Part shown: one piece after another, positions 13,236-64,000 of the stretch
Numbering within the stretch: position 1 is the first letter of the stretch
Layout of the letters: each line of letters opens with the position of its first letter
Source: Escherichia coli
GTDB taxonomy: Bacteria; Pseudomonadota; Gammaproteobacteria; Enterobacterales; Enterobacteriaceae
DNA: 64,000 bases
Assembly: GCF_022846255.1 (NCBI RefSeq)
Contig: NZ_AP025682.1
Direction: 5' to 3' (one strand)
The notes under the pieces: model-generated
What the model was told of the DNA's origin: nothing
Databases searched by the model: none
What the model saw: the letters and a program-made list of their open reading frames with translations, nothing else
Translations under genes and position numbers: made by a program

Positions 13236-13270
13236 TTGCTGCCGGATGGCGTTTAATCGCCTTCCGGCAG
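13236..13270. repeat. REP-like imperfect palindrome downstream of pepD
   Basis: CTGCCGGATGGCG-ttta-ATCGCCTTCCGGCAG, one mismatch in the stem. Confidence 0.4.
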
Positions 13271-13282
13271 TTTCATCCTTCA

Positions 13283-15045: not shown

Positions 15046-15222
15046 TTATGAATAAAAATCAGGAAATGGCAGACGAATCCAGGGCAAGAAAAAAGAATTA
15101 ATCCTGGAAAGGTCTGCAAAGAGTCATTGATAAAGGATTTGTCATGATTTACCTCCTTGCAGTTTGTGGAATAAGAAAACGCGCACATACTAGACGGGCG
15201 TTATTTTCATTGCAAGCTGGAT

Positions 15223-15675: not shown

Positions 15676-15684
15676 AATATAAAT

Positions 15685-16083
15685 TCAAAAACGCATGCGA
15701 AACGCTTCTGCCATTTTCCCAATTTTATGCATTTGGTTGTTATCTCGAGCCAGTTTATGAGGTTCAGGTTTCAGAATGGCAATGAGCAACCATGCTTGCT
15801 CATCAAACGCACCCTGACAATATACCAAATGCGCTGCGTCATTCGTTCTGCTGAATTGGCGCAACTGTGGCGGAAATGGATTATTCACATTTGCCAGATG
15901 AATATGAGCAACTCGCTCAAATTTGATTAATGGCCAGGTAAACGAGTCGTCGTAGAGTGCATCGCGACCAAATATATCTGGCAAAACACCGTCACGCTTA
16001 TAGGAAATAAAATCCGCCGTTAACGCATCAAGTTCCTCTGCTGTAAGTTGCAGGCGAATAAGTTTTGTTTTGAATACCCGCAT
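15685..16083 (-). CDS. yafO: mRNA interferase toxin YafO, 132 aa
   Basis: Full-length ORF directly downstream of yafN, 2-nt gap. Confidence 0.9.
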   Translation of the reverse strand: MRVFKTKLIRLQLTAEELDALTADFISYKRDGVLPDIFGRDALYDDSFTWPLIKFERVAHIHLANVNNPFPPQLRQFSRTNDAAHLVYCQGAFDEQAWLLIAILKPEPHKLARDNNQMHKIGKMAEAFRMRF

Positions 16084-16085
16084 CC

Positions 16086-16379
16086 TTATTCCTTAAAGTC
16101 ATTGAAATCATCATCCGTCATATCATTAAGATATTGTTCAGCGCGGCGTGTAATTTCCTCTAATCTTGCGGCACTCGGACGGAAGCGCGCCTTAACCAGT
16201 TTTTTCTCCTCTTGTTCAGCAAGCATGTCCATTAACGCTTCAAATGCGCTGGCACTTAAGAGATATCCTGCGGGGCGATTATTAGAAAGAACCGCAACCG
16301 GTTGATCAATAAAGTATTTAGCTGGGTTTTTACGTAACTCAGTGATATTGACCGATTTTTCAGCGAGAATTCGATGCAT
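16086..16379 (-). CDS. yafN: Antitoxin YafN (Phd/YefM family), 97 aa
   Basis: Full-length ORF; typical antitoxin-before-toxin arrangement. Confidence 0.9.
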   Translation of the reverse strand: MHRILAEKSVNITELRKNPAKYFIDQPVAVLSNNRPAGYLLSASAFEALMDMLAEQEEKKLVKARFRPSAARLEEITRRAEQYLNDMTDDDFNDFKE

Positions 16380-16430
16380 ACAGTGATCCCCTCATAATAA
16401 TGCACATCAGAATATACATAATAGTATACA

Positions 16431-17486
16431 TCATAATCCCAGCACCAGTTGTCTTTCCATTTGAGGGTCAAGTAACGTCACATGCAGCCCCACCAGACGC
16501 ACACCGCGCCCGCCACGGCGTTCATCCCAGGTTTTACGCGCGGTGGCGATTAAGTCAGCTTTATTCAGCCGCGGCCAGACGTGCTCCTGAGTGGTTTGCT
16601 GAAAATCATCAAACTTTAATTTCACCCCCTGGCGAGCAATCAGTAAATCAGGTTTTACCTTTGCCAGACGGCGTTCAAGTTCAGGATACAGCCGCTCGAT
16701 AATCGCTTCACATTCAGACCAGTGATGAATATCTTCCGCCATCGTGCGTTCCACGCCGACGGATTTTCGCAACCGTTCACTGTTAACGTCGCGCTCGTCA
16801 ATCCCCTGACTACGCTCCCACAAAATGCGGCCAAATTTGCCAAAACGTTTGAGCAGAGTCACCAGATCACACTTTTGCACATCACCGCAGGTCCGCAGCC
16901 CCATCGCTTCCAGTTTTGCCGCCGAGACTTTGCCGACGCCGGGAATTTTTGCCAGCGGTAAGGTTTGCAGAAATGCCGGAACTTCTGCCGGCGTAATCAC
17001 AAACTGGCCGTTGGGTTTATTCATGTCGGAGGCGATTTTGGCGAGAAACTTGACCGGCGCAACGCCCGCAGACGCCGTCAGTTGCAGCTCGTTGAAGATC
17101 GTCTGGCGGATTTCCTGGGCGATGAGGGTCGCAGAACCGTGGCAATGGACGCTATCGGTGACATCGAGATAGGCTTCATCCAGTGATAACGGTTCAATGC
17201 GCGAGGTATAGCGCGAGAAAATTTCGCGGATATGATTTGAGGCTTCTTTGTAGGCGTCAAAGCGCCCTGGAAGCAAGGTGAGATGCGGGCATAATTTGAG
17301 CGCCATCCCTGTCGGCATAGCGCTACGTACGCCAAATTTACGCGCGGGATAATTGGCGGTGCTGATTACCCCCCGTCGTTCGCGGCTGCCGCCAATAGCA
17401 ATAGGGATATCGCGCAGGGCGGGATTGTCGCGCATCTCCACCGCTGCGAAAAAGCAGTCCATATCCACATGAATGATTTTACGCAT
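16431..17486 (-). CDS. dinB: DNA polymerase IV (Y-family translesion polymerase), 351 aa
   Basis: Full-length match ([46 protein letters not shown]...). Confidence 0.96.
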
Positions 17487-17500
17487 TGCTCACCTCTCAA

Positions 17501-17520
17501 CACTGGTAAAGTATACAGTG
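17501..17520 (-). promoter_or_regulatory. LexA (SOS) box of the dinB promoter
   Basis: CACTGGTAAAGTATACAGTG contains CTG-N10-CAG with a TATA core, 15 bp upstream of the dinB start. Confidence 0.7.
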
Positions 17521-17556
17521 ATTTCAGGGTTTGAGAAATGCGTAAAGATTCAGCAT

Positions 17557-18480
17557 TTAACGCGTTCGCTGCGAAAGCACCTGCTGCTTATCCAGCTTTT
17601 GCACCAGCGGCTGCACCACTTTATCCCCATGCTGACCAAAGTATTGATACAGCGTATCGGACGCGCTTTTAGTCAGCACCATAATCTCAATGCGCCGGTT
17701 GCCCGCGCTTTGCGGATTTTTCGCGTCCAGCAGCATCTGGTCCGCCATTGCGCTCACCTGCATCACTTTATCTTCCGGCATTCCTGCCTCTTCCAGCACC
17801 CGACGAGCCGAAAGCGCGCGGTCACCCGAAAGGTTCCAGTTGTTGTAGATATTGTTTTTGTAGGCCATCGCATCGGTATGCCCGGTAATAATAATTTTGT
17901 TATCGAGCGAGTCGAACACTGGCGCGAGCTCCACCAGCAGCGTTTTAAAGAACGGCATAATCTGCGCGCTGCCGCGTTCGAACATATTGCGATTCTGGTC
18001 GTCTTTAATCAGCACGCGTAATCCCTGCGGGACAATCTCCATCTCCAGATTCGCTTCCATATGCGCATCACGGGCAATGGTGTTGATGCTGGTTGCCAGC
18101 TCACCAAGCTCGGTGGCGGATTTCTTCTTCAGCAGCGCCGTTTTCTCGTTGACGTCGCGCGCTTTTTTCTCCGTCTCTTCCGGCACCGCCACGGTGGCAG
18201 GTTTTGACGGATGAGACGGGCTGATTTTATTTAACGGCGACAGCCCACCACCGTTAAAAATCGACTGCCCGTGCAGCGCGGCGATAATGCTTTCACGCTC
18301 GGATTTACTGACGCTATTGACAATCCACAGCGTCATAAATAGCGCCATCATCGCCAGGGTAAAGTCGGCGAACGCTACCTTCCACGCCCCGCCGTGGTGC
18401 CCGGCATGATTCTTTTTGATCTGCCGCCGGACGATGGTGGTTTTTGCCCCACGCTCGCGGCGGTTGCCCGTCTTTCTCAT
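17557..18480 (-). CDS. lafU: Lateral flagellar motor stator protein LafU (MotB-like, OmpA C-terminal domain); mbhA counterpart
   Basis: Single TM segment (WKVAFADFTLAMMALFMTLWIV) plus OmpA-like peptidoglycan-binding C-terminus; start set at MRKTGNRRE just after the lafT stop. Confidence 0.85.
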   Translation of the reverse strand: MRKTGNRRERGAKTTIVRRQIKKNHAGHHGGAWKVAFADFTLAMMALFMTLWIVNSVSKSERESIIAALHGQSIFNGGGLSPLNKISPSHPSKPATVAVPEETEKKARDVNEKTALLKKKSATELGELATSINTIARDAHMEANLEMEIVPQGLRVLIKDDQNRNMFERGSAQIMPFFKTLLVELAPVFDSLDNKIIITGHTDAMAYKNNIYNNWNLSGDRALSARRVLEEAGMPEDKVMQVSAMADQMLLDAKNPQSAGNRRIEIMVLTKSASDTLYQYFGQHGDKVVQPLVQKLDKQQVLSQRTR

Positions 18481-29571: not shown

Positions 29572-29705
29572 GCGCGCTGATGCCCTCACCCCGGCCCTCT
29601 CCCACAGGGAGAGGGCGAAAACCTGCGCCATATTCACCTCCGCGCTCAATCGGTCCCCTCGCCCCTTTGGGGAGAGGGTTAGGGTGAGGGGCAAAGCGCG
29701 CCCCT
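29572..29705. repeat. ~130-bp compound palindromic intergenic repeat, copy A (two hairpin units), between lfgK and lfgJ
   Basis: CCCTCACCCCGGCCCTCTCCCacaGGGAGAGGGC ... TCCCCTCGCCCCTTTGGGGAGAGGGTTAGGGTGAGGGG; near-exact reverse complement of copy B at 38862..38993. Confidence 0.6.
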
Positions 29706-38861: not shown

Positions 38862-38993
38862 GCGCGCTTTGCCCCTCACCCTAACCCTCTCCCCAAAGGG
38901 GCGAGGGGACCGATCGAGCACGGTGTTAAAATCGGCGCTGGTTTTCTCCCTCTCCCTGTGGGAGGGGGTCGGGGTGAGGGCATCAGCGCGCAC
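38862..38993. repeat. ~130-bp compound palindromic intergenic repeat, copy B, inverted relative to copy A
   Basis: GCCCCTCACCCTAACCCTCTCCCCAAAGGGGCGAGGGGACCGATCG...CTCCCTCTCCCTGTGGGAGGGGGTCGGGGTGAGGG; reverse complement of 29572..29705. Confidence 0.6.
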
Positions 38994-48456: not shown

Positions 48457-48584
48457 AGGGTGAACGATATAAGTAGCGACATTAATCAGGATGTTCTGAA
48501 GCGTATCACCGGTGGGATTAACAAGTTCGAATTAAACGATAATAAAAATATTATTTGTTTATAAACAATGAGTTATAACCGCAG

Positions 48585-48662
48585 GCCGGATAAAGCGTTT
48601 ACGCCGCATCCGGCAATCGTGCACCGGTGCCTGATGCGACGCTGCGCGTCTTATCAGGCCTA
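48585..48662. repeat. Pair of REP elements in the lafK-lfiM divergent intergenic region
   Basis: GCCGGATAAAGCGTTTACGCCGCATCCGGC and GCCTGATGCGACGCTGCGCGTCTTATCAGGCCTAC. Confidence 0.6.
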
Positions 48663-51866: not shown

Positions 51867-52995
51867 CAGCAGCGAAGAAAAAACAGAGAAACCCTCGGCG
51901 CAAAAGCTGCGTAAAGCGCGTGAAGAGGGGCAGCTACCGCGCTCGAAGGATATGGGGCTGGCGGCGAGCCTGTTTGCAGCGTTTGTGGTGATCTCCAGTA
52001 GTTTTCCGTGGTATGCCGATTTTGTGCGCGAGAGTTTTATCAGCGTGCATCAGTACGCACAGGAGATTAATAACCCGCAGGTGATCGGTCAGTTTCTGCG
52101 CCATCACCTGTTAATTCTCGGCAAGTTTATCCTTACGTTGCTGCCGATGCCCGCCGCCGCACTGCTCTCCTCACTGGTGCCCGGCGGCTGGCTGTTTCTG
52201 CCGAAAAAAATCCTCCCGGATTTCAGCAAAATCAGCCCGTTAAAAGGCATTGGGCGACTGTTTTCCAGCGAACATCTGGCGGAAACGGGGAAGATGACAG
52301 TGAAGTCGGTGGTGGTGCTGGTAATGCTGTGGGTAAGCCTGCGCAATAACTTTGCCGCCTTTCTCGGCCTGCAGGCGCTGCCGTTCAAACTGGCGATGAA
52401 TGATGGATTATCGCTCTACGCCAGCGTGATGCGCAACTTTGTCATCCTGTTTATCTTCTTTGCGTTAATCGACGTGCCGCTGGCGAAAGCCCTGTTCACC
52501 AAAGGGCTGAAGATGACCAAGCAGGAGCTGAAAGAAGAGTACAAAAATCAGGAAGGCAAGCCGGAAGTGAAGGCGCGCGTGCGGCGGCTGCAACGGCAAC
52601 TGGCGATGGGGCAAATTCGCAAAGTGGTGCCGAAAGCCAACGTGGTGATCACCAACCCGACCCACTACGCCGTGGCGTTACAGTATGACTCATCACGTGC
52701 CGCCGCACCGTTTGTGGTGGCGAAAGGCACCGATGAAATCGCCCTCTATATTCGCCAGGTCGCCACTGAAAATCAGGTGGAAGTGGTGGAGTTCCCGCGA
52801 CTCGCGCGCTCGGTTTACTACACCACCCAGGTGAACCAGCAAATTCCGTTTCAGCTTTACCGGGCCATCGCCCACGTTCTGACCTACATCCTGCAAATGA
52901 AACACTGGCGCGAGGGCGCACAGCCGCGCCCGGCCCTGAACAGACATATTTCCATTCCCAAAGAGGTACTTAAACTGGATGGCGAAAACAACTAA
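51856..52995 (+). CDS. lfhB: Export apparatus protein LfhB (FlhB-like), 379 aa
   Basis: FlhB-like sequence including the NPTH autocleavage motif (VVITNPTHYAVAL). Confidence 0.9.
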   Translation: MADSSSEEKTEKPSAQKLRKAREEGQLPRSKDMGLAASLFAAFVVISSSFPWYADFVRESFISVHQYAQEINNPQVIGQFLRHHLLILGKFILTLLPMPAAALLSSLVPGGWLFLPKKILPDFSKISPLKGIGRLFSSEHLAETGKMTVKSVVVLVMLWVSLRNNFAAFLGLQALPFKLAMNDGLSLYASVMRNFVILFIFFALIDVPLAKALFTKGLKMTKQELKEEYKNQEGKPEVKARVRRLQRQLAMGQIRKVVPKANVVITNPTHYAVALQYDSSRAAAPFVVAKGTDEIALYIRQVATENQVEVVEFPRLARSVYYTTQVNQQIPFQLYRAIAHVLTYILQMKHWREGAQPRPALNRHISIPKEVLKLDGENN

Positions 52996-55072
52996 ATCGT
53001 TCCTCGCGCCGCTGCGCGGCGGCAATCTCGGCGTGCCGTTGGTGATCCTGTGTATTCTGGCGATGGTTATTCTGCCGCTGCCGCCTGCGCTGCTGGATAT
53101 TCTGTTCACCTTCAACATTGTGCTGGCGGTGATGGTGCTGCTGGTGGCCGTGTCGGCGAAAAGGCCGCTGGAATTCAGCCTGTTCCCGACCATTTTGCTG
53201 ATCACCACCTTAATGCGTCTGACGCTTAACGTTGCTTCTACGCGCGTGGTGCTGCTACACGGGCATCTCGGCGCGGGCGCGGCGGGTAAGGTGATTGAGT
53301 CGTTTGGTCAGGTGGTGATTGGCGGCAACTTTGTCGTCGGTTTCGTGGTATTTATCATCCTGATGATCATCAACTTTATCGTCGTAACCAAGGGGGCCGA
53401 GCGTATTTCCGAGGTTTCTGCCCGCTTTACCCTGGACGCGATGCCCGGCAAACAGATGGCGATTGACGCCGATCTTAACGCCGGGTTGATCAACCAGACG
53501 CAGGCGCAAACCCGGCGTAAAGATGTCGCCAGCGAGGCCGATTTCTACGGCGCAATGGACGGGGCATCAAAATTTGTGCGCGGGGACGCCATCGCCGGGA
53601 TGATGATTCTGGCGATCAACCTGATCGGCGGCGTCTGTATCGGCATCTTCAAATACAACCTGAGCGCCGACGCCGCCTTCCAGCAATATGTGCTGATGAC
53701 TATCGGCGATGGGCTGGTGGCGCAAATCCCTTCCCTGCTGCTCTCCACCGCGGCGGCGATTATCGTCACCCGCGTCAGCGATAACGGTGATATCGCCCAT
53801 GACGTGCGTAATCAGTTGCTGGCAAGCCCGTCGGTTCTCTACACCGCCACTGGAATTATGTTCGTGCTGGCGGTGGTGCCGGGAATGCCGCATTTCCCGT
53901 TCCTGATGTTCAGCGCCCTGCTTGGTTTTACCGGCTGGCGGATGAGCAAGCGCCCGCAAGCGGCGGAGGCGGAAGAGAAAAGCCTCGAAACGCTAACCCG
54001 TACGATGACAGAAACCAGCGAGCAACAGGTCAGTTGGGAAACTATTCCGCTGATCGAACCTATCAGTTTAAGCCTCGGCTACAAACTGGTGGCGCTGGTG
54101 GATAAAGCGCAGGGCAACCCGCTCACCCAGCGTATTCGCGGCGTACGTCAGGTGATTTCCGACGGCAACGGCGTGCTGCTGCCGGAGATCCGTATTCGGG
54201 AAAACTTCCGTCTCAAGCCCAGCCAGTACGCCATTTTCATCAACGGCATTAAGGCTGATGAAGCGGATATTCCGGCGGATAAACTGATGGCCCTGCCCTC
54301 CAGCGAAACCTACGGCGAGATTGACGGCGTACTGGGGAATGACCCGGCATATGGGATGCCGGTCACCTGGATTCAGCCTGCGCAGAAAGCGAAGGCGCTG
54401 AATATGGGGTATCAGGTGATCGACAGCGCCAGCGTGATTGCCACCCATGTGAACAAGATTGTGCGCAGCTATATTCCTGACCTCTTTAACTATGACGATA
54501 TTACGCAGTTGCATAACCGCCTGTCGTCGATGGCACCGCGACTGGCGGAAGATTTGAGCGCGGCACTCAATTACAGCCAATTGCTGAAAGTGTACCGGGC
54601 GCTGCTGACCGAAGGCGTTTCCCTGCGCGATATCGTCACCATCGCCACCGTGCTGGTCGCCAGTAGTGCGGTGACCAAAGATCATATTCTGCTGGCGGCA
54701 GATGTGCGCCTGGCGCTGCGGCGCAGCATTACCCATCCGTTCGTTCGCAAGCAGGAGCTGACGGTGTATACGCTGAATAATGAGCTGGAAAATCTGCTGA
54801 CCAACGTGGTGAATCAGGCGCAACAGGCCGGCAAAGTGATGCTCGACAGCGTGCCAGTGGACCCGAATATGCTCAACCAGTTCCAGAGTACGATGCCGCA
54901 GGTAAAAGAGCAGATGAAAGCGGCGGGGAAAGATCCGGTGCTGCTGGTGCCTCCGCAGCTGCGCCCTTTGCTGGCGCGCTATGCAAGGTTGTTTGCGCCG
55001 GGGCTGCATGTGCTGTCGTATAACGAAGTGCCGGATGAGTTGGAGTTGAAGATAATGGGGGCGTTGAGTTGA
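52979..55072 (+). CDS. lfhA: Export gate protein LfhA (FlhA-like; fhiA counterpart), 697 aa
   Basis: FlhA-like N-terminal TM domain and large cytoplasmic domain, full length. Confidence 0.92.
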   Translation: MAKTTKSFLAPLRGGNLGVPLVILCILAMVILPLPPALLDILFTFNIVLAVMVLLVAVSAKRPLEFSLFPTILLITTLMRLTLNVASTRVVLLHGHLGAGAAGKVIESFGQVVIGGNFVVGFVVFIILMIINFIVVTKGAERISEVSARFTLDAMPGKQMAIDADLNAGLINQTQAQTRRKDVASEADFYGAMDGASKFVRGDAIAGMMILAINLIGGVCIGIFKYNLSADAAFQQYVLMTIGDGLVAQIPSLLLSTAAAIIVTRVSDNGDIAHDVRNQLLASPSVLYTATGIMFVLAVVPGMPHFPFLMFSALLGFTGWRMSKRPQAAEAEEKSLETLTRTMTETSEQQVSWETIPLIEPISLSLGYKLVALVDKAQGNPLTQRIRGVRQVISDGNGVLLPEIRIRENFRLKPSQYAIFINGIKADEADIPADKLMALPSSETYGEIDGVLGNDPAYGMPVTWIQPAQKAKALNMGYQVIDSASVIATHVNKIVRSYIPDLFNYDDITQLHNRLSSMAPRLAEDLSAALNYSQLLKVYRALLTEGVSLRDIVTIATVLVASSAVTKDHILLAADVRLALRRSITHPFVRKQELTVYTLNNELENLLTNVVNQAQQAGKVMLDSVPVDPNMLNQFQSTMPQVKEQMKAAGKDPVLLVPPQLRPLLARYARLFAPGLHVLSYNEVPDELELKIMGALS

Positions 55073-55102
55073 TGGGGGAGACTATATAAGGTCTCGGACT
55101 GT

Positions 55103-55127
55103 CCCCTCGCCCCTTTGGGGCGAGGGA
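55103..55127. repeat. Perfect hairpin repeat unit between convergent lfhA and yafL
   Basis: CCCCTCGCCCC-ttt-GGGGCGAGGG; related to units of the compound repeat at 29572 and 38862; no U-run, so not called a terminator. Confidence 0.4.
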
Positions 55128-55169
55128 GAAAAACGTGTACGACTTTAACTTTTTCGCAGTATTGCCGTC

Positions 55170-55928
55170 CTACAAAATCGTCTCTTCCGTCAAAATCCGC
55201 CGCGCGCCTAAAAAATGATCCTGCCAGAAAGGTTCAGCTAACCGGCTTATCCGAATGGTTTCGCCGGTACGTGGTGACTCGATAAACTGACCGTCTCCCA
55301 GATACACCCCCATATGATCGGCTATCTCGCGGCTGTGAATATGGAAAAACAGCAAATCTCCCCGGCGCAGGTCGTTATTCGCCACAATCGTTGCCCGACG
55401 GTAGTGGTACATCTCATTGGCCGTGCGCGGGAGCTTAGCCTCAAGGATCTTGTTGTAGGCATAAAAAACCAACCCGCTACAGTCGAAGCCTTTATCAGGC
55501 CGCGTGCCCCCCCAGATATAAGGCTTACCTAGCTGCTGCTCCAGGCGGTGAATCGCCACTTCGGTGATGTTATGTAGATGGTCGCTGCTTAAGAAATGAT
55601 TATTCTCCACCAACGCCTGCCAGCGTCTGTCACTCGCCTTGAGCGGCGCAGGAAACCATTCTGGATGCTGTTTTATCTGCTCCCGATTATGCTGGCGCAG
55701 CGCCCTTCTGCTTTTGGCATTGCCTTCCACAATATAGCTGGCCTGCTTTTTCAGATGGGTTTGGTACTGTTTTAATAAACGCGCACGGTTTTGCATCCGC
55801 TGGCGGGCGGCGTAGCTAAAAGAGATATGTGATGTGGTGGCGCTGGCGAGTAAAGGGAGCAAAACGCATAACGAAAACACGCCTGGATGCAGAAATCTGC
55901 CGTGCAAGAACGAAGACATGAAGGACAT
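55170..55928 (-). CDS. yafL: NlpC/P60-family peptidoglycan endopeptidase YafL, 252 aa
   Basis: Signal peptide; catalytic Cys context (GFDCSGLVFYAY) and His (DHMGVYLG). Confidence 0.85.
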   Translation of the reverse strand: MSFMSSFLHGRFLHPGVFSLCVLLPLLASATTSHISFSYAARQRMQNRARLLKQYQTHLKKQASYIVEGNAKSRRALRQHNREQIKQHPEWFPAPLKASDRRWQALVENNHFLSSDHLHNITEVAIHRLEQQLGKPYIWGGTRPDKGFDCSGLVFYAYNKILEAKLPRTANEMYHYRRATIVANNDLRRGDLLFFHIHSREIADHMGVYLGDGQFIESPRTGETIRISRLAEPFWQDHFLGARRILTEETIL

Positions 55929-56230
55929 AAACCAGCTGAATGAAGGTGAGAATTTTAAAAGACCGGAGGAGTAAACGGGATTATTAATTGCTTATTTGCA
56001 TATTACTATTGCGGTTTCATAATCTTAGGAAATAAGAAATAAATCTACAATCCATGCGCTTTTCGGACTCTTGAAAACTGCCCCTGTGCTAAATTTGTAA
56101 ACCCTGCGCCGACAGGCTTGCGTAAAACTCTTTTGGTGATAATGTGAGCCTTCCAAATCCAGACTATTCCGATTTGGGATTCATTTTGCCGTCCTGGCGT
56201 GTGTAACCGTTTTATCAAGGAATAAGCAGT

Positions 56231-56971
56231 ATGCGTAAAATCGCATTAATTCTTGCGATGTTGTTGATCCCGTGCGTTTCGTTTGCCGGTTTGCTGGGCA
56301 GCAGTAGCTCGACCACGCCAGTGAGCAAAGAGTATAAGCAGCAGTTGATGGGATCCCCTGTCTACATCCAGATCTTCAAGGAAGAACATACGCTCGATCT
56401 CTACGTCAAAATGGGCGAGCAATATCAACTGCTCGACAGCTATAAAATCTGTAAATATTCCGGCGGCTTAGGGCCAAAACAGCGTCAGGGCGATTTCAAA
56501 AGCCCGGAAGGGTTTTATAGCGTCCAGCGTAATCAGTTAAAACCAGACAGCCGTTACTACAAAGCGATTAATATTGGATTCCCAAACGCCTATGACCGTG
56601 CGCATGGTTATGAAGGGAAATACCTGATGATTCACGGCGATTGTGTTTCCATCGGCTGCTACGCGATGACCAATCAGGGTATTGATGAGATCTTCCAGTT
56701 CGTTACTGGTGCGCTGGTGTTTGGTCAGCCGAGCGTGCAAGTGAGTATTTATCCGTTCCGCATGACCGACGCCAATATGAAGCGCCATAAATATTCCAAC
56801 TTTAAGGACTTCTGGGAGCAACTGAAGCCGGGCTACGACTACTTTGAGCAAACCCGTAAGCCACCGACCGTTTCTGTGGTCAATGGCCGTTACGTGGTCA
56901 GCAAGCCGTTAAGCCACGAAGTTGTGCAGCCACAACTGGCATCAAACTACACGCTCCCCGAGGCAAAATAA
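56231..56971 (+). CDS. yafK: L,D-transpeptidase-family protein YafK, 246 aa
   Basis: Signal peptide; YkuD-like catalytic region ([12 protein letters not shown]). Confidence 0.9.
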
Positions 56972-57709
56972 GCGCCATTCACCTGGCATAATCTTTTGCC
57001 AGGTTTCATTGCCCGTCAGCGGCTGTGTCGCAATCACCGTGACCACATCATTCGGTGTGGTCTGCGAGCTGAAGTCGATTTCCACATCCTGATCCAGCAA
57101 CGTTGCCACGCCAAACGGCGCGCGGCGGGTGATCCAGTGTAAATTAGTCGAGCAATACGCCATTACATAGCGCCCATCCGAAAGTAGCATGTTGAAAACG
57201 CCCTTCTGCCGCAGTTCATCCGCCAGTGAGGCGATATATTTAAACACTGCCGCCATGTTGCCCGGTGTGCGCGGGTAACGCTGCGTTAATTTATGCAGGA
57301 GCCAGCAAAAGGCTTTTTCGCTATCGGTTTCACCGACCGGGCGGAAGTTGCCGGTTTCCAGTGATTTGTAGCCCGTCAGTTGTCCATTATGGGCATAAGT
57401 CCAGTTACGCCCCCATAACTCGCGGGTAAACGGGTGAGTATTTTCCAGCGCCACCTCGCCCCGATTAGCCTGGCGAATATGAGCCACCACCGAACAGGAT
57501 TTTATCGGGTAGTCCTGGACAAGTTTGGCGATGGGGGAATTAAAGCTGGGTTGCGGATCTTTAAATGTGCGACAGCCTTTACCTTCGTAAAAGGTAATGC
57601 CCCAGCCATCTTTATGTGGCCCGGTTCCACCACCACGCTGTACAAGTCCGGTGAAACTAAAGCAGATATCGGTAGGGACATTGGCGCTCATCCCGAGCAA
57701 TTCGCACAT
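56942..57709 (-). CDS. yafJ: Class II glutamine amidotransferase YafJ, about 255 aa
   Basis: N-terminal MCELLGMS (catalytic Cys2) with a GGAGG Shine-Dalgarno; ORF track starts 5 codons earlier. Confidence 0.88.
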
Positions 57710-57784
57710 GGGTAACCTCCACAACAGCGGGAGCGCATGGCCCCCGGCGAAGATTGATTAAAAAGTAAAAAGGTGCAGGCTGTT

Positions 57785-57815
57785 ACCCTCACCCCGGCCC
57801 TCTCCCTGAAAGGGA
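57785..57815. repeat. Single unit of the CCCTCACCCCGGCCCTCTCCC-type palindromic repeat upstream of gmhA
   Basis: CCCTCACCCCGGCCCTCTCCCTGAAAGGGAGA. Confidence 0.4.
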
Positions 57816-57824
57816 GAAAAGACC

Positions 57825-58403
57825 TTACTTAACCATCTCTTTTTCAATTAACTGGATCAGGATATGGATCACTTTAATGTGGATCTCCTGAATGCGGTCG
57901 GCATAACCAAAGTGCGGAACGCGAATTTCAATATCCGCCGTGCCAGCCATTTTGCCGCCGTCTTTACCGGTCAGGGTGATCACTTTCATCCCCTTCTCAC
58001 GCGCCGCCGCGATCGCTTTGATCACGTTTGCAGAGTTACCGGAAGTGGAGATCCCCAGCAGTACATCGCCTTCGCGACCTACCGCTTCAACGTAACGGGA
58101 GAAAATATCATTGAAACCAAAATCATTACCGACGCAGGAAATATGGCTGACGTCAGAAATGGCAATCGCCGGGTAGCCCGGACGGTTTTCACGGTAGCGA
58201 CCGGTCAACTCTTCGGCAAAGTGCATGGCGTCGCAATGGGAGCCGCCGTTGCCACAGGAAAGCACTTTGCCACCGGCTTTAAAGCTGTCTGCTAACAGGA
58301 CCGCCGCGCGCTGAATGGCGTGAATATTGGCGTCATCTTTTAAAAAGTTAGCCAGCGTTTCCGCCGCTTCGTTCAGTTCATTACGAATAAGATCCTGGTA
58401 CAT
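57825..58403 (-). CDS. gmhA: Phosphoheptose isomerase (sedoheptulose-7-phosphate isomerase), 192 aa
   Basis: Start at [24 protein letters not shown] (ORF track extends 54 codons upstream); SIS domain. Confidence 0.95.
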
Positions 58404-58642
58404 GAGGATATCCTTCAGCATAAATGTAATAGACAAAATGCAGTGTACCGGATACCGCCAAAAGCGAGAAGTACGGGCAGGTGCTATGACCAGGACTTTT
58501 TGACCTGAAGTGCGGATAAAAACAGCAACAATGTGAGCTTTGTTGTAATTATATTGTAAACACATTGCTAAATATTTTCACATCCACTACAACCATATCA
58601 TCACAAGTGGTCAGACCTCCTACAAGTAAGGGGCTTTTCGTT

Positions 58643-61087
58643 ATGATGATTTTGAGTATTCTCGCTACGGTTGTCCTGCTCGGCGCATTGTTCTATCACC
58701 GCGTGAGCTTATTTATCAGCAGTCTGATTTTGCTCGCCTGGACAGCCGTCCTCGGCGTTGCTGGTCTGTGGTCGGCGTGGGTACTAGTGCCTCTGGCCAT
58801 TATCCTCGTGCCATTTAACTTTGCGCCTATGCGTAAGTCGATGATTTCCGCACCGGTATTTCGCGGTTTCCGTAAGGTGATGCCGCCGATGTCGCGCACT
58901 GAGAAAGAAGCGATTGATGCGGGCACCACCTGGTGGGAGGGCGACTTGTTCCAGGGCAAGCCGGACTGGAAAAAGCTGCATAACTATCCGCAGCCGCGCC
59001 TGACCGCTGAAGAACAAGCGTTTCTCGACGGCCCGGTAGAAGAAGCCTGCCGGATGGCGAATGATTTCCAGATTACTCATGAGCTGGCGGACCTGCCGCC
59101 GGAGTTGTGGGCGTACCTTAAAGAGCATCGTTTCTTCGCGATGATCATCAAAAAAGAGTACGGTGGGCTGGAGTTCTCGGCTTATGCCCAATCTCGTGTG
59201 CTGCAAAAACTCTCCGGCGTGAGCGGGATCCTGGCAATTACCGTCGGCGTGCCGAACTCATTAGGCCCGGGCGAGCTGCTGCAACATTACGGCACTGACG
59301 AGCAGAAAAATCACTATCTGCCGCGTCTGGCGCGTGGTCAGGAGATCCCTTGCTTTGCACTGACCAGCCCCGAAGCGGGTTCCGATGCGGGCGCGATTCC
59401 GGATACCGGGATTGTCTGCATGGGCGAATGGCAGGGCCAGCAGGTGCTGGGGATGCGTCTGACCTGGAACAAACGCTACATTACGCTGGCACCGATTGCG
59501 ACCGTGCTTGGTCTGGCGTTTAAACTCTCCGACCCGGAGAAATTACTCGGCGGTGCAGAAGATTTAGGTATTACCTGTGCGCTGATCCCGACCACCACGC
59601 CGGGCGTGGAAATTGGTCGTCGCCACTTCCCGCTGAACGTACCGTTCCAGAACGGACCGACGCGCGGTAAAGATGTGTTCGTGCCGATCGATTACATCAT
59701 CGGCGGGCCGAAAATGGCCGGGCAAGGCTGGCGGATGCTGGTGGAGTGCCTCTCGGTAGGCCGCGGCATCACCCTGCCTTCCAACTCAACCGGCGGCGTG
59801 AAATCGGTAGCGCTGGCAACGGGTGCGTATGCGCACATTCGCCGTCAGTTCAAAATTTCTATTGGTAAGATGGAAGGGATTGAAGAGCCGCTGGCGCGTA
59901 TTGCCGGTAATGCCTATGTAATGGATGCTGCGGCATCGCTGATTACCTACGGCATTATGCTCGGTGAAAAACCCGCCGTGCTGTCGGCTATCGTTAAGTA
60001 TCACTGTACCCACCGCGGGCAGCAGTCGATTATTGATGCGATGGATATCACTGGTGGCAAAGGCATTATGCTCGGGCAGAGCAACTTCCTGGCCCGTGCT
60101 TACCAGGGGGCACCGATTGCCATCACCGTTGAAGGGGCAAATATTCTGACCCGTAGCATGATGATCTTCGGTCAGGGGGCGATTCGTTGCCATCCGTACG
60201 TGCTGGAAGAGATGGAAGCGGCGAAGAACAATGACGTTAACGCGTTCGATAAACTGCTGTTCAAACATATCGGTCACGTCGGTAGCAACAAAGTTCGCAG
60301 CTTCTGGCTGGGCCTGACGCGCGGTTTAACCAGCAGCACGCCAACCGGCGACGCCACTAAACGCTACTATCAGCATCTGAACCGCCTGAGTGCCAACCTC
60401 GCCCTGCTTTCTGATGTCTCGATGGCGGTGCTGGGCGGCAGCCTGAAACGTCGTGAGCGCATCTCGGCCCGTCTGGGGGATATTTTAAGCCAGCTTTACC
60501 TCGCCTCTGCCGTTCTGAAGCGTTATGACGACGAAGGCCGTAATGAAGCCGATCTGCCGCTGGTGCACTGGGGCGTACAGGATGCGCTGTATCAGGCAGA
60601 ACAGGCGATGGACGATTTACTGCAAAACTTCCCGAACCGTGTGGTTGCCGGGCTGCTGAATGTGGTGATCTTCCCGACCGGACGTCATTACCTGGCACCG
60701 TCTGACAAGCTGGATCATAAAGTGGCGAAGATTTTACAAGTACCGAACGCCACTCGTTCACGTATTGGTCGCGGTCAGTACCTGACGCCGAGCGAGCATA
60801 ACCCGGTTGGTTTACTGGAAGAGGCGCTGGTGGATGTGATTGCCGCCGACCCGATTCATCAGCGGATCTGTAAAGAGTTGGGTAAAAACCTGCCGTTTAC
60901 CCGTCTGGATGAACTGGCGCACAACGCGCTGGCGAAGGGGCTGATTGATAAAGATGAAGCCGCTATTCTGGTGAAAGCTGAAGAAAGCCGTCTGCGTAGT
61001 ATTAACGTTGATGACTTTGATCCAGAAGAGCTGGCGACGAAGCCGGTAAAGTTGCCGGAGAAAGTGCGGAAAGTTGAAGCCGCGTAA
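58643..61087 (+). CDS. fadE: Acyl-CoA dehydrogenase FadE, 814 aa
   Basis: Start at [24 protein letters not shown] (ORF track extends 26 codons upstream); N-terminal membrane segment plus ACAD domains. Confidence 0.95.
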
Positions 61088-61095
61088 TTGAATAA

Positions 61096-61120
61096 CGGAG
61101 CCTTTCGGCTCCGTTTTTTT
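61096..61120 (+). terminator. Rho-independent terminator downstream of fadE
   Basis: CGGAGCC-tttc-GGCTCCG hairpin followed by TTTTTTT. Confidence 0.7.
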
Positions 61121-61129
61121 ATCGGCTAA

Positions 61130-61603
61130 TTATTTAAAATTAAAGCCATCCGGATGGTTTTCCAGGCTGCCGGTCAACGCCGCGAACAGCACCGTTTTAC
61201 CATCAATAGAAAGCGCATCGTTCACATTCAACCAGGTGAGTTTCTCTTGCGACGTTTTCTCATCAATGGTCGAGAACAGCCCCGTCATCTGATTAGATTT
61301 CTCGGACCACATCACAGCGATACGTTGCGAGCCACAGTCATGCGGTTTGCACGCGCTCATCACCTGATACGTCTCATCTCCCAACGTTACGGTTTGTGCA
61401 GGGGTATAAGTACCGCCTTTCATCACCCAGGCCGGCAGCTTATGCCCTTGCACCATCTGATTAAACGCCGCTTTGGTGGTTTCGCCCTTTGCAAGACTGC
61501 TAATGGTTAAATCATCCTGCGCCATTGCACTGGTGGCGATGACCAGAGCGGCGACTGTCGTTATTGCCTTAAACATCATTCCTCCCGGGCTTATCCTGCC
61601 CAT
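61130..61603 (-). CDS. ivy: Inhibitor of vertebrate lysozyme Ivy, 157 aa
   Basis: Signal peptide plus the conserved CKPHDC loop. Confidence 0.93.
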   Translation of the reverse strand: MGRISPGGMMFKAITTVAALVIATSAMAQDDLTISSLAKGETTKAAFNQMVQGHKLPAWVMKGGTYTPAQTVTLGDETYQVMSACKPHDCGSQRIAVMWSEKSNQMTGLFSTIDEKTSQEKLTWLNVNDALSIDGKTVLFAALTGSLENHPDGFNFK

Positions 61604-61756
61604 GTGATTAACTCCCTAAAGCCTGGCGATAACACGATAATTTGCAAATCAGATATTTCCAATATCAGCATTTGTTATCAATTTATTCTGCGCTAAGGCA
61701 ACTGCCTGATAAGGTGTTAGAGTTATAAAACCCTTCGCATAAAGGAGTTGTACACC

Positions 61757-62527
61757 GTGCCTGGTTTGAAGATTACGCTTTTGCAGCAACCACTGGTGTG
61801 GATGGATGGTCCTGCCAACCTGCGCCATTTTGATCGTCAACTGGAAGGTATTACCGGGCGCGATGTGATCGTTCTACCGGAGATGTTTACCAGCGGCTTT
61901 GCCATGGAAGCGGCAGCTTCGTCGCTAGCACAAGATGACGTAGTGAACTGGATGACAGTCAAAGCGCAGCAGTGCAATGCGCTGATTGCAGGCAGTGTTG
62001 CATTACAAACGGAGTCTGGTTCGGTTAACCGCTTTTTGCTGGTTGAGCCGGGCGGCACGGTACATTTTTATGATAAGCGTCATCTGTTCCGCATGGCAGA
62101 TGAGCATCTACATTATAAAGCGGGCAATGCGCGAGTGATTGTGGAATGGCGCGGCTGGCGTATTTTGCCGCTGGTGTGCTACGACTTACGTTTTCCGGTG
62201 TGGTCGCGCAATCTCAACGATTATGACCTCGCCCTGTACGTCGCCAACTGGCCTGCTCCGCGCTCTCTACACTGGCAGGCATTGCTGACAGCCCGCGCGA
62301 TTGAGAATCAGGCGTATGTGGCGGGATGCAATCGCGTCGGCAGCGATGGCAACGGCTGCCATTATCGTGGTGACAGCCGGGTGATTAATCCGCAAGGCGA
62401 GATTATCGCTACTGCCGACGCGCATCAGGCAACGCGCATTGATGCGGAGCTGTCGATGATGGCATTGCGGGAATATAGAGAAAAGTTTCCGGCATGGCGG
62501 GATGCGGATGAGTTTAGGTTGTGGTGA
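61757..62527 (+). CDS. yafV: Nitrilase-superfamily omega-amidase YafV, about 256 aa
   Basis: GTG start 9 nt after an AAGGAG Shine-Dalgarno; carbon-nitrogen hydrolase catalytic Cys context (LPLVCYDLRFP). Confidence 0.88.
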   Translation: MPGLKITLLQQPLVWMDGPANLRHFDRQLEGITGRDVIVLPEMFTSGFAMEAAASSLAQDDVVNWMTVKAQQCNALIAGSVALQTESGSVNRFLLVEPGGTVHFYDKRHLFRMADEHLHYKAGNARVIVEWRGWRILPLVCYDLRFPVWSRNLNDYDLALYVANWPAPRSLHWQALLTARAIENQAYVAGCNRVGSDGNGCHYRGDSRVINPQGEIIATADAHQATRIDAELSMMALREYREKFPAWRDADEFRLW

Positions 62528-62529
62528 GT

Positions 62530-63765
62530 GGGTGTTGTGTTTAGGGCCGGGGAGAGTCAGGGTAAGACTACGAAAGCCCGCTCCCAGCAAGGACTGACGC
62601 CAGGTAGTTTCTGTCCATGGCTGCTTTTCGCATCTTACGTCTTAACCCTGCCTTGAATACATTATCATTCGTTAAAATATTAATAGCGATGTGCCGTATC
62701 CCTGAAAATAATTCTGCTGCATTTCCTCTTCTTATTTTGCAGTCGTCTTCATTCATTACCACGTCCAGACGCCAGTGCAGCTTATTCTCCACGTGCCAGT
62801 GGTTTCGGATTGCTGTGGCGAACTTCTCTGCGGTTAAATCAGCAGAACTGATATAATATCTGACCGTCATTTCTGGCTCTTTCTTTTGTTCTGCTATTAT
62901 TGACCGAAAGGAGACTGCCACGCATAATTTCTTCAGACCTTTCCATTCAAACATGAAATCAATAAGTTCATCAGGGACATCGCAAACAATGTGAAGACGG
63001 ATTTCTTCTCTGCCGTGACTTTTTTCACTAATTGCGTAACTGTCATGCTCTGGATTATTTAATTCTTTCAGTGGGAATTTTTCCTCAAAGGCTTTATTAA
63101 GCCGCCCCTGATTTCCTTTTACAGCGAATAAATAATCACCGCCCTGTTTTTGTATCTTCTCTGCGATATCTTTCTGGCAACCCATCGCATCAGTTGTGAT
63201 AATTTTTCCTTTAATATCCAACATGTTAAGAAGTTCATGGATAGCTGTGATCTCATTGGATTTCTCATCCGTCCTGATCTGTCCGATGACCAGACTGTGC
63301 ATTGTTGAGAACGCACTAATGACATGAATCGCTCCCCTGCGGCGACTCTTGTCATAAGAATGCCGGAGCGTTTTTCCATCAATTGCAATAACGTCTTTAT
63401 CATCTGAAGAATGGCAGTCACGCATCCAGTTAATAAAGCACTCGTGAAATTTTGCAGGACTGATACAGGATACAACTCTGGCAATGGTATCGTGAACAGG
63501 AATACCATTTTCAAAATCACCATATTGCTTCAAAAAATCGAGATGTGTTTCCCCAAAATCCTCTATATCTTCCCAGCCTTCTGCACCAGAAATAACGGCA
63601 CAAATAGTCAACAGTAGAATACCCGATAATTTATGTTCCACTTTCCAGGCTTGTCTGTAATCGGGGATAATAGAAATATGTTCCATCAATTTTTTAAGTT
63701 CCATTTTGTTCTACTTAATTATGTAAGGAGTATTTGATCATGTATACGCAATAAAAAACAGCTTC
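62530..63765 (-). mobile_element. ISAs1-family (H-repeat) insertion element, complete copy
   Basis: About 1.2-kb unit carrying an intact transposase ORF; its first ~240 bp (62537..62780) is repeated almost identically at 63770..64000, the start of a second tandem copy. Confidence 0.7.
62568..63704 (-). CDS. ISAs1-family transposase (H-repeat-associated protein, YhhI/YafF-like), 378 aa, intact
   Basis: Full-length ORF ([59 protein letters not shown]...). Confidence 0.85.
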
Positions 63766-63781
63766 AGGTAACAGGGCAAGA

Positions 63782-64000
63782 TTACGAAAGCCCGCTCCCC
63801 GCAAGGACTGACGCCAGATAGTTTCTGTCCATGGCTGCTTTTCGCATCTTACGTCTTAACCCTGCCTTGAATACCTTATCATTCGTCAAAATATTAATAG
63901 CGATGTGCCGTATCCCTGAAAATAATTCTGCTGCATTTCCTCTTCTTATTTTGCAGTCGTCTTCATTCATTACCACGTCCAGACGCCAGTGCAGCTTATT
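63782..64000 (-). CDS. Second ISAs1-family transposase gene, 3' part only (continues past window end)
   Basis: Encoded C-terminus differs by one residue from the last 64 aa of the first copy. Confidence 0.7.

Follow-up and report, generated by a model that had tools for sequence, protein, structure and literature searches.

The absence of dinJ-yafQ and of rayT from a 64-kb window of Escherichia coli (the window being the whole stretch of DNA analyzed here) represents a pair of ordinary strain differences, both of already described kinds. Judged from sequence comparison, the two sites concerned, i.e., lfhA-yafL and yafL-yafK, appear to be allelic replacements rather than clean insertions or deletions. 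We regard it as highly probable that the window carries a short BoxC allele at the first site and an ancestral toxin-antitoxin-free haplotype at the second, with cassettes being exchanged by recombination. In E. coli, an absence relative to K-12 is a poor guide to novelty and of little discovery value, because both sites occur in several common configurations, of which K-12 has just one.

Gene layout and comparison with K-12

The features on which the analysis is based are listed in Table 1. In the window, lfhA and yafL are convergent, and yafL and yafK are divergent. The lfhA gene encodes the FlhA paralogue of the cluster for Flag-2 lateral flagella (RefSeq homologues are annotated as ‘flagellar biosynthesis protein FlhA’) and is intact, as the Flag-2 cluster of this strain would also be, whereas the K-12 counterpart of lfhA is a pseudogene (lfhA'). 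The TAG stop codon of yafL is the reverse complement of positions 55170-55172, and the distance to yafK amounts to 302 bp if the ATG at 55928 is taken as its start, or to 311 bp with the ATG at 55919, whose equivalent is used by the RefSeq homologues of 750 bp. At the protein level, DpaA is 99.6% identical to that of K-12, and YafL exhibits 93% identity over residues 9-249.

Table 1. Coordinates of genes, intergenic regions and sequence elements in the window
Feature	Position	Strand	Description
lfhA	52979..55072	+	ORF; 697 aa, full length; TGA at 55070-55072
lfhA-yafL intergenic region	55073..55169		97 bp, short BoxC allele
Perfect hairpin CCCTCGCCCC-TTT-GGGGCGAGGG	55104..55126		10-bp stem, 3-nt loop
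GTAGGACGG, REP-head-like 9-nt stub	55165..55173	-	Overlaps yafL stop codon
yafL, NlpC/P60 (C40) peptidase	55170..55928	-	ORF and RefSeq homologue annotation
Crossover interval inside yafL	55339..55376		Mismatch pattern against 2021CK-00607 and JCM 5491
Haplotype-specific segment of the toxin-antitoxin-free yafL-yafK allele	55848..56090		243 bp, no K-12 alignment
dpaA upstream region, conserved	56091..56230		Common to both yafL-yafK haplotypes and to other genera
yafK = dpaA (peptidoglycan meso-DAP protein amidase)	56231..56971	+	Homologue annotation

The gene order in NC_000913 is gmhA, yafJ, dpaA (yafK), yafQ, dinJ, yafL, rayT, lfhA', lafU' and dinB, so that the first-pass annotation was correct in placing rayT between yafL and lfhA, and dinJ-yafQ between yafK and yafL. 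The alignment with K-12 that it had proposed as a check was performed by blastn, and homology was lost at the rayT and dinJ-yafQ sites: window positions 55068-55164 face 896 bp containing rayT in K-12, and positions 55848-56090 face 838 bp containing dinJ-yafQ. Next to the latter gap, the conserved dpaA upstream region aligns at 83-97% with K-12, Citrobacter and Phytobacter. The claimed absence of both modules extends to the entire 64-kb window, in which tblastn (E <= 1e-3) returned no match to K-12 RayT, DinJ or YafQ, nor to HicA or HicB from strain A20, which like DinJ-YafQ make up a type II toxin-antitoxin module. Its description of the two intervals was likewise accurate, i.e., a spacing of exactly 97 bp with a perfect hairpin between lfhA and yafL, and a divergent yafL and yafK 302 bp apart. 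The nearest complete E. coli genomes are 97.5-98.8% identical over positions 40000-64000, 55400-64000 and 6000-17600.

Alternative cassettes between lfhA and yafL

Several cassettes, i.e., rayT with REPs, hicAB, a REP-only array and BoxC, occupy the lfhA-yafL site within the same boundaries; they are mutually non-homologous and behave like alleles of one locus. Among 5,426 complete E. coli genomes, rayT is present in 3,569 (66%), essentially as a single copy at this one fixed intergenic site, while hicAB was found at full length in 1,371 and in any form in 1,480. The BoxC allele is contiguous in 126 genomes, of which 39 also possess the toxin-antitoxin-free haplotype, and 98% of the collection carries some other sequence at the site. 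The 97-bp region is identical in 2021CK-00607, and a single nucleotide separates it from that of SC418 and of Z1323HEC0462. In each of the four other Escherichia lineages sampled (E. albertii, E1V33, SCPM-O-B-8794 and MOD1-EC7003) the site carries rayT, and Pseudocitrobacter contains both rayT and BoxC alleles. Citrobacter, Phytobacter, Atlantibacter and Pseudescherichia exhibit the order dpaA-yafL-lfhA with neither rayT nor dinJ-yafQ, the lfhA-yafL region of Citrobacter being an unrelated 44-bp hairpin. Genuine products of rayT loss were also encountered, namely the REP-only array of JCM 5491 and the rayT pseudogene of Z0117EC0117.

The first-pass annotation had proposed the rayT gap as an insertion scar or an empty target, neither of which agrees with a site that is occupied by a BoxC remnant and shares with the rayT/REP allele just a 9-nt stub. 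In the window, lfhA ends in GALS*, as it does in Citrobacter, in the hicAB allele and in E1V33, whereas most rayT alleles end it in GALM* because a REP overlaps the last lfhA codons. The GALS* end of the BoxC allele represents the outgroup state and suits the idea of an untouched ancestral target into which a rayT-REP module was inserted later: the GALS* end with its TGA is that of Citrobacter and has been overwritten in most rayT alleles, the E1V33 rayT allele retains TGA followed by TGGG like the window, and rayT is missing here in more distant genera. We nevertheless consider this idea rather unlikely, as the 85-bp unique sequence of the window is kept on neither side of the rayT alleles, the corresponding Citrobacter region is unrelated, the site already holds another repeat element, and rayT is found in every other Escherichia lineage sampled.

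The stub points in the opposite direction. In K-12, E1V33 and E. albertii, the REP next to yafL in the rayT allele begins with these same 9 nt, and inside the intergenic region the BoxC and rayT alleles have nothing else in common; the stub hints that the BoxC allele may derive from a REP-bearing allele. The full GTAG-headed REP/BIME palindrome of ~35 bp (GTAGGCCGGATAAGGCG...CGCCGCATCCGGC) is not present, its first 9 nt alone being found at 55173-55165, and no REP core was detected within 55073-56230 at up to two mismatches, although REPs do persist elsewhere in the 64-kb window. A 9-mer search of the rayT, hicAB and REP-only alleles for remnants of the BoxC region returned, beyond the stub, three isolated matches that were read as chance; in rayT alleles the sole 9-mer of this kind is AAAAACGTG, present in K-12 and Z0117EC0117. 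The hicAB and BoxC alleles also look somewhat alike at their yafL-proximal ends (~17/25 nt with a gap), a resemblance that was judged too weak to rely on.

A scar remaining after the loss of rayT and its REPs from this exact site would account for the REP-head-like sequence abutting the yafL stop codon, would agree with rayT occupying the site in the four other Escherichia lineages and 66% of the complete E. coli genomes, and would match the treatment of RAYT-less E. coli as losses in the literature (bioRxiv 10.1101/2021.07.10.451892). Such a scar would be expected to contain leftover REP or rayT sequence, but there is a single chance 9-mer beyond the stub, and the gap instead consists of ~85 bp of unrelated sequence including the BoxC remnant. 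Pseudocitrobacter vendiensis and 126 E. coli genomes share this allele, whether long or short, and the real decay products in JCM 5491 and Z0117EC0117 look different, which together render a rayT-loss scar very unlikely. We favor a difference between allelic cassettes, of which either the BoxC or the rayT allele may be the older; neither target-site duplications nor terminal inverted repeats were found at the junctions of either site, and the replacement is without a duplicated flank. The strain is therefore most likely RAYT-less, like about one third of complete E. coli genomes, rayT being absent from the 64 kb analyzed.

A collapsed BoxC pair

The BoxC elements of E. coli, also known as PIT or TMECO, are repeats of the intrastrand-triplex type (Hoyne et al. 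2000; Holder et al. 2015, PMC4666352), for which the consensus CCCTCNCCC-N3-6-GGGNGAGGG plus a third block has been defined, and which form inverted pairs of a type A and a type B motif (PMC4666352). The hairpin of the window, which is predicted to fold as single-stranded DNA at -19.9 kcal/mol (z = -3.9), contains block 1 (CCCTCNCCC), a loop within the 3-6 nt range and block 2 (GGGNGAGGG). The third purine block, another GGGNGAGGG positioned 3 nt past block 2, is missing, since the sequence after the hairpin reads AGAAAAACG on the plus strand and GACAGTCCG on the minus strand, and a search of the window with the strict TMECO consensus gave no match at 55104-55126. The window copy is thus a truncated BoxC derivative and not a full member, and because the third block is lacking on both strands it is incapable of forming the triplex.

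A long allele of 161 bp occupies the same locus in E. coli PCN033 (L033, 1514-1674) and comprises two complete TMECO motifs arranged head to head, one of type A (TTA) and one of type B (CCG), in inverted orientation. Its equivalent is found in P. vendiensis (L010), and in both organisms the long allele contains the third block twice. Compared to this long allele, the window is without 64 bp located between the direct repeats GGGGAGAGGG and GGGGCGAGGG. The hairpin therefore seems to be the collapsed remnant of an inverted BoxC/PIT/TMECO pair, which would have lost the 64 bp between two 10-bp direct repeats and retained its outermost, perfectly complementary arms; the repeat structure suggests that replication slippage was probably responsible. 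Partial deletions that leave a foldable hairpin have been reported for palindromic TMECO pairs, in a catalogue that comprises 63 TMECO loci (Holder et al. 2015, PMC4666352), and lfhA-yafL would constitute a clear natural case of such a collapse.

BoxC elements are dispersed, intergenic and multi-copy in the window, with strict TMECO matches at 29583-29615, 29656-29690 and 38873-38907, a looser copy at ~38940-38990 and a degenerate one at 57786-57815. A second REP-versus-BoxC swap was observed at yafJ-gmhA.

Recombination within yafL

The yafL gene of the window is chimeric, with a recombination crossover between 55339 and 55376. Against 2021CK-00607, a carrier of the BoxC allele, the window shows 0 mismatches over 55055-55376 and then 29 up to 55852. 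The comparison with JCM 5491, which carries the REP-only allele, yields 15 mismatches over 55200-55338 and then 0 from 55339 to 55900, with no more than two mismatches per 100 bp beyond that point as far as 56900. On the left-hand side of the BoxC patch, the last 170 bp of lfhA offer few informative sites. This chimeric structure fits an exchange of cassettes by homologous recombination, and cassettes probably pass between lineages in this manner through recombination in the flanking genes.

Conservation of the BoxC region

The BoxC region displays 0-2 differences in 97 bp, compared to 8.7-18.7% divergence at third codon positions in its flanks, and the contrast extends to the comparison of E. 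coli with Pseudocitrobacter. That the region is much more conserved than its flanks is not accounted for by neutral cassette exchange and, together with the strong predicted fold, may be taken to indicate a functional non-coding element under selection between the convergent lfhA and yafL genes, such as a signal for an RNA 3' end or for RNA stability, and not just a decayed repeat. We consider a role of this kind unlikely. A scan of 55073-55169 for Rho-independent terminators detected none on either strand, the hairpin tails being AGAAAAAC and GACAGTCC and thus not T-runs, and Rfam returned nothing relevant at either intergenic region (the window at the gathering threshold, and 54900-56400 at E <= 1). 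In published tests, PIT/BoxC elements acted neither as promoters nor as terminators (PMC4666352). Furthermore, some other sequence is located here in 98% of complete E. coli genomes, and the pairwise comparisons on which the conservation is based are not independent. A more encompassing scenario, in which lfhA-yafL would be a long-lived multi-allelic locus where RAYT/REP, HicAB and the BoxC pair, as unrelated small selfish or repeat modules, exclude each other across species and genera, the BoxC region would be under purifying selection, and REP and BoxC would compete for intergenic niches as the swap at yafJ-gmhA suggests, is in our view improbable.

The haplotype without dinJ-yafQ between yafL and yafK

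The segment 55848-56090 spans approximately the first 27 codons of yafL, which encode the signal peptide, and the yafL promoter region. The phylogroup B2 strains Nissle 1917, NU14 and ATCC 11775 carry it at 100% identity, and the toxin-antitoxin-free intergenic region is contiguous in 2,082 of the 5,426 complete E. coli genomes, dinJ-yafQ being present in the complement (~62%). In alignments with E. albertii, Escherichia sp. E1V33 and SCPM-O-B-8794, which are without dinJ-yafQ and possess rayT, the segment is 85-88% identical, collinear and unbroken. Local alignment of the 260 nt that precede the region encoding mature YafL gave scores of 268-301 with these three genomes, as opposed to ~20 with shuffled sequence and 18 with K-12, and the signal peptide of YafL matches that of the same three genomes as well as the Citrobacter type.

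Collinearity with E. albertii and with two further divergent Escherichia genomes identifies the toxin-antitoxin-free haplotype as the probable ancestral Escherichia state, and the lineage of the window would never have held dinJ-yafQ. The K-12 dinJ-yafQ haplotype would then be a later import, with 838 bp replacing 243 bp including the signal-peptide codons and promoter of yafL, most likely by homologous recombination with a diverged donor. It is extremely improbable that the 302-bp gap is a deletion scar in a lineage that once had dinJ-yafQ, since, even though ~62% of complete E. coli genomes and the divergent Escherichia MOD1-EC7003 contain the module, the 243-bp segment is homologous (85-88%) to the interval of E. 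albertii, E1V33 and SCPM-O-B-8794, encodes the same signal-peptide type and contains no fragment of dinJ or yafQ, and an orthologous ancestral sequence could not be regenerated by deletion. Junction alignments displayed neither a target duplication nor a scar at this site, and the notion of an insertion scar, as raised in the first-pass annotation, is accordingly abandoned here. Its alternative, a pre-insertion state, is borne out by collinearity with toxin-antitoxin-free Escherichia, although not in the sense of a clean insertion, as 243 bp were replaced by 838 bp.

Among the non-Escherichia loci sampled, none had dinJ-yafQ beside yafL and no donor was located. The K-12-type 5' region of yafL has a 48-bp AT-rich motif upstream of the gene in common with Phytobacter and C. 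amalonaticus (score 53-58, shuffle maximum 32), and this motif shows the K-12-type promoter to be, in all probability, a diverged yafL promoter. As a sign of a relationship between the K-12-type 5' region and Phytobacter or C. amalonaticus, the sharing of this motif alone was judged too weak, and it does not point to a donor. The arrival of dinJ-yafQ would have rewritten the 5' end and promoter of yafL, and the N-terminus of YafL should not be treated as orthologous between strains.

Comparison with known systems

The dinJ-yafQ module has been assigned to the E/B1/A lineage and phylogroup F only, being absent from B2, D and G (Gonzalez-Alba et al. 2019, PMC6896753), and an uneven distribution among phylogroups has also been attributed to an earlier study (Fiedoruk et al. 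2015, as cited in PMC7167474). The window, which is without dinJ-yafQ and whose haplotype recurs unchanged in Nissle 1917, NU14 and ATCC 11775, fits this published pattern. Beyond the published distribution, our data suggest that arrival of the module replaced the 5' end and promoter of yafL, and show that E. albertii carries an orthologue of the toxin-antitoxin-free haplotype.

The window hairpin resembles TMECO elements in its first two consensus blocks and its intergenic position, and differs from them in missing the third block, GGGNGAGGG, on both strands. The long allele, in turn, is organized like all five K-12 TMECO pairs, i.e., as an inverted combination of type A and type B.

As in the RAYT/REPIN system, rayT, also called yafM and encoding a Y1 HUH transposase, is essentially a single-copy gene at a fixed site, about one third of genomes are without it, and REPs persist in its absence. 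Some E. coli are described as having lost RAYT (Park et al. 2021, PMC8049555; Bertels & Rainey, bioRxiv 10.1101/2021.07.10.451892), and replacement of rayT by another cassette was not encountered in the passages of these two reports that were consulted. No paper joining REPIN, RAYT and phylogroup was found. Unlike in a view of RAYT loss as plain deletion, the place of rayT is mostly taken by hicAB or BoxC, so that rayT loss in E. coli would mostly constitute allelic replacement, which bears on models of REPIN-population decay.

The ccdO157 toxin-antitoxin system, studied by Mine and co-workers in 2009, is said to be located between folA and apaH, where it reportedly alternates with a short repeat-containing intergenic region. 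The sites described here are similar in that two conserved genes enclose a small module that may be there or not, with a short repeat-bearing sequence in the unoccupied allele, and lfhA-yafL differs from ccdO157 in having at least four alternative occupants, one of which is a domesticated transposase.

Genetic organization of the yafK-lfhA interval

The dinJ-yafQ genes and rayT (yafM) are absent from the window, as the first-pass annotation had proposed by comparison with the K-12 gene order. That order, named there as the point open to refutation, is borne out by the K-12 record (gmhA, yafJ, dpaA, yafQ, dinJ, yafL, rayT, lfhA', lafU', dinB; dpaA being yafK). Blastn comparison with K-12 revealed two homology gaps, at which K-12 carries 896 bp including rayT and 838 bp including dinJ-yafQ, respectively, while tblastn against the entire 64-kb window returned zero matches to RayT, DinJ, YafQ, HicA or HicB. 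The spacings were also as described, i.e., exactly 97 bp between lfhA and yafL, with a perfect hairpin (10-bp stem, 3-nt loop; CCCTCGCCCC-TTT-GGGGCGAGGG), and 302 bp between the divergent yafL and yafK genes (311 bp from the alternative yafL ATG, which is the RefSeq start in 750-bp homologues). The genes yafJ, gmhA and fadE lie rightward of yafK.

The Flag-2 lateral-flagellar cluster is intact in the window and includes FliM/FliN-family switch genes, fliP, fliQ, fliR, flhB and fliE-fliJ, among others; in K-12 only the lfhA' and lafU' remnants adjoin dinB.

Coordinates of features in the window
Feature	Position	Strand	Remark
IS009 RNA	3874-4074	-	Rfam, gathering threshold
tRNA	5318-5390	-	Rfam, gathering threshold
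dinB	16434-17486
Flag-2 cluster	about 17600-55072		intact
BoxC/TMECO pair	29583-29690		tail to tail
BoxC/TMECO pair	38873-38990		tail to tail
naRNA4	48584-48660	+	Rfam, gathering threshold
lfhA	52979-55072	+	697 aa, full length
LfhA C-terminal codons	55061-55072		GALS*
Homology gap 1 (blastn, K-12)	55068-55164
lfhA-yafL intergenic region	55073-55169
Perfect hairpin	55104-55126
yafL	55170-55928	-	ORF; alternative start ATG at 55919
Homology gap 2 (blastn, K-12)	55848-56090
yafK/dpaA	56231-56971	+	divergent from yafL
Degenerate BoxC, yafJ-gmhA	57760-57819

The yafL-yafK region: a probable ancestral state

Alignment of eight strains defined two yafL-yafK haplotypes that are unrelated by simple insertion or deletion and whose junctions show no target duplication. 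They part within yafL just past ...GGTGGCGCTGGC, at about codon 27, where the signal peptide ends, and meet again at ...AAAT|TTGTAAACC, a point some 140 bp upstream of dpaA. The haplotype-specific segment measures 243 bp in the window versus 838 bp in K-12, the latter containing dinJ and yafQ along with differing versions of the signal-peptide coding sequence and of the yafL promoter region.

A GTDB-wide YafL search yielded 24 loci, which were compared by gene content. Among these, dinJ-yafQ was present only in Escherichia sp. MOD1-EC7003; Citrobacter species and Phytobacter display the order fadE-gmhA-yafJ-dpaA-yafL-lfhA without it, and E. albertii, Escherichia sp. E1V33 and SCPM-O-B-8794 likewise lack it. 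The whole interval of the window aligns unbroken to these last three at 85-93%, and in the 260 nt preceding the coding sequence of mature YafL local-alignment scores were 268-301 against them versus 18 against K-12 (shuffled controls: about 20, maximum 32). Furthermore, the window's YafL signal peptide, MSSFLHGRFLHPGVFSLCVLLPLLASA, belongs to the type found in E. albertii, E1V33 and Citrobacter, while that of K-12, MSLPSIPSFVLSGLLLICLPFSSFASA, occurs in dinJ-yafQ haplotypes only. Together, the unbroken alignment, the scores and the signal-peptide match argue that the window's yafL-yafK region most probably represents the ancestral state for Escherichia. The proposed pre-insertion state thus stands for dinJ-yafQ, as this collinearity indicates, though what took place was a replacement that extends into yafL.

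The K-12 haplotype retains an AT-rich motif seen upstream of yafL in other genera (local-alignment scores of 53-58 against C. amalonaticus), which suggests a diverged yafL locus, acquired through homologous recombination, as its probable source, as opposed to random foreign DNA; no donor locus was found among the 24 YafL loci.

The dinJ-yafQ-free region was contiguous in 2,082 of 5,426 complete E. coli genomes, with 100% identity to the window in the phylogroup B2 strains Nissle 1917, NU14 and ATCC 11775. The dinJ-yafQ genes have been reported in the E/B1/A lineage and phylogroup F only (PMC6896753).

The lfhA-yafL region: alternative cassettes between fixed boundaries

The lfhA-yafL site is not 'empty', because alternative, mutually non-homologous sequences fill the same boundaries, set by the stop region of lfhA on one side and the stop codon of yafL on the other. 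The alleles comprise rayT flanked by REP arrays (K-12, S14, E. albertii and the remaining divergent Escherichia genomes), a rayT pseudogene that contains an internal stop (Z0117EC0117, L005 1091-1588), a 274-bp REP-only array (JCM 5491, L004 673-946), hicAB (A20) or hicB alone (EFF60), and the 97 bp of the window, shared by SC418, 2021CK-00607 and Z1323HEC0462. The pseudogene and the REP-only array are real stages of rayT decay at this site. In both of these strains the 5' part of yafL and the yafL-yafK region are nearly identical to those of the window.

Among the same 5,426 genomes, rayT was found in 3,569, essentially as a single copy, so that about one third lack it; its absence is common, while the sequence substituting for it in the window is rare. 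The window-type junction was contiguous in only 126 genomes (best identity 98.2%), and both window-type states were combined in 39, e.g., PCN033, MS 69-1 and SC418. A full-length hicAB cassette was present in 1,371 genomes and a full or partial one in 1,480, located at the lfhA-yafL site in all examples inspected. The nearest complete genomes are only 97.5-98.8% identical to the window over three stretches (40000-64000, 55400-64000 and 6000-17600).

The last LfhA residue tracks the intergenic allele: the protein ends in GALS* in Citrobacter and alongside the BoxC and hicAB alleles, and in GALM* in most rayT alleles, because the final two lfhA codons are overlapped there by a GTAG-headed REP. 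A REP head also provides the yafL stop codon (TAG) of rayT alleles.

The site appears variable across the entire family: in Kluyvera ascorbata (L024 6736-7160) and Phytobacter massiliensis (L025 6646-6983) the gap holds 340-425 bp of further unrelated sequence. The yafL and Flag-2 DNA of Pseudocitrobacter is 94-95% identical to the window, about like that of other Escherichia species (Citrobacter: 79%), and the 6 kb upstream of yafL contain no fadE, gmhA, yafJ or dpaA homologues in P. vendiensis (L010) or P. faecalis (L012), suggesting transfer between genera. The two species differ in their lfhA-yafL alleles, a long BoxC form and rayT, respectively.

Within E. coli this locus shows unusual diversity, the 3' ends of yafL and lfhA being 93-98% identical among strains. 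Relative to 2021CK-00607 (BoxC allele) the window shows 0 mismatches over 55055-55376 and then 29 up to 55852, while relative to JCM 5491 (REP-only allele) it shows 15 over 55200-55338, 0 over 55339-55900 and no more than 2 per 100 bp from there to 56900. The window's yafL is therefore a chimera with a crossover within 55339-55376, which is direct evidence that the intergenic cassette differs in history from the remainder of yafL. This fits a model in which cassettes would be swapped by homologous recombination in the flanking genes.

The hairpin as a remnant of a BoxC element

A long, 161-bp allele with the same unique flanks occurs in E. coli PCN033, with an equivalent in P. vendiensis. Its centre, CCCTCGCCCC TTT GGGGAGAGGG TTA GGGTGAGGGG ...GCGCGC... 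CCCTCACCCC GG CCCTCTCCCC AAA GGGGCGAGGG, consists of two complete BoxC (PIT, TMECO) motifs, type A and type B, head to head, both matching the published TMECO consensus CCCTCNCCC-N3-6-GGGNGAGGG-N3-GGGNGAGGG (PMC4666352). Missing from the 97-bp forms are the 64 bp that separate the direct repeats GGGGAGAGGG and GGGGCGAGGG; retention of the C variant (window, 2021CK-00607) yields a perfect hairpin, and of the A variant (SC418, Z1323HEC0462) a hairpin with one mismatch. Such collapse of BoxC/TMECO pairs has been ascribed to replication problems at the motifs (PMC4666352). The window's hairpin is a truncated BoxC, since the third consensus block is missing; a terminator scan did not identify it as a canonical terminator, and it had no Rfam match. 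The reading of the rayT site as an insertion scar or pre-insertion state is thus not upheld, the position being occupied by a remnant of another repeat family.

The 97 bp show 0-2 differences between the window and SC418, 2021CK-00607, Z1323HEC0462, PCN033 and P. vendiensis, compared to 8.7-18.7% at third codon positions within 500 bp on each side (Fisher p 1e-3 to 5e-6, the comparisons being non-independent). Conservation of the BoxC-type region far exceeds that of synonymous sites in the neighbouring genes, between genera too, reflecting either constraint or recent spread in very short patches.

As to the order of alleles, we rate it, roughly, as slightly better than even that a REP-bearing allele gave way to the BoxC allele: each of the four other sampled Escherichia lineages, like P. 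faecalis, has rayT at the site, the GTAGGACGG that spans the yafL stop codon in the BoxC allele equals the head of the adjacent REP in rayT alleles of K-12, E1V33 and E. albertii, and RAYT absence has been termed a loss (bioRxiv 10.1101/2021.07.10.451892). That a BoxC-type region predates the arrival of rayT is a tentative, rather unlikely alternative. For a BoxC-type region that is older than rayT or unconnected with it speaks the GALS* ending with TGA, being the Citrobacter state, as does the E1V33 rayT allele, which retains GALS* followed by TGGG, like the window. More distant genera carry neither allele, Citrobacter having an unrelated 44-bp hairpin at this position. Some other order is improbable.

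Elsewhere in the window, three strict and two looser TMECO matches were found. In the pairs at 29583-29690 and 38873-38990, sequence just outside the hairpins depends on motif type (GACNGNNC beside type A, (A/C)GAAAAC beside type B), which suggests that the repeat unit extends beyond the 37-nt TMECO core. At a distance of 2.6 kb, between yafJ and gmhA, there is a second REP-versus-BoxC swap, where the window has a degenerate BoxC (CCCTCACCCC GG CCCTCTCCC TGAA AGGGAGA; junction contiguous in 862 of 5,426 genomes) in place of the 3-REP BIME, about 150 bp long, of K-12 and A20. REP cores remain at several window positions despite the absence of rayT, and naRNA4 is a REP-derived nucleoid-associated RNA.

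Comparison with described elements

Two further inverted pairs of complete BoxC/TMECO motifs in the window are arranged tail to tail, with hairpins inward, in contrast to the head-to-head pair of the long lfhA-yafL allele. Every component of the window's yafK-lfhA configuration has been described previously, i.e., RAYT-less E. coli (PMC8049555; bioRxiv 10.1101/2021.07.10.451892), the phylogroup-restricted distribution of dinJ-yafQ (PMC6896753), and BoxC/TMECO pairs with their collapse to hairpins (PMC4666352); the absences of dinJ-yafQ and rayT thus represent an already known kind of variation.
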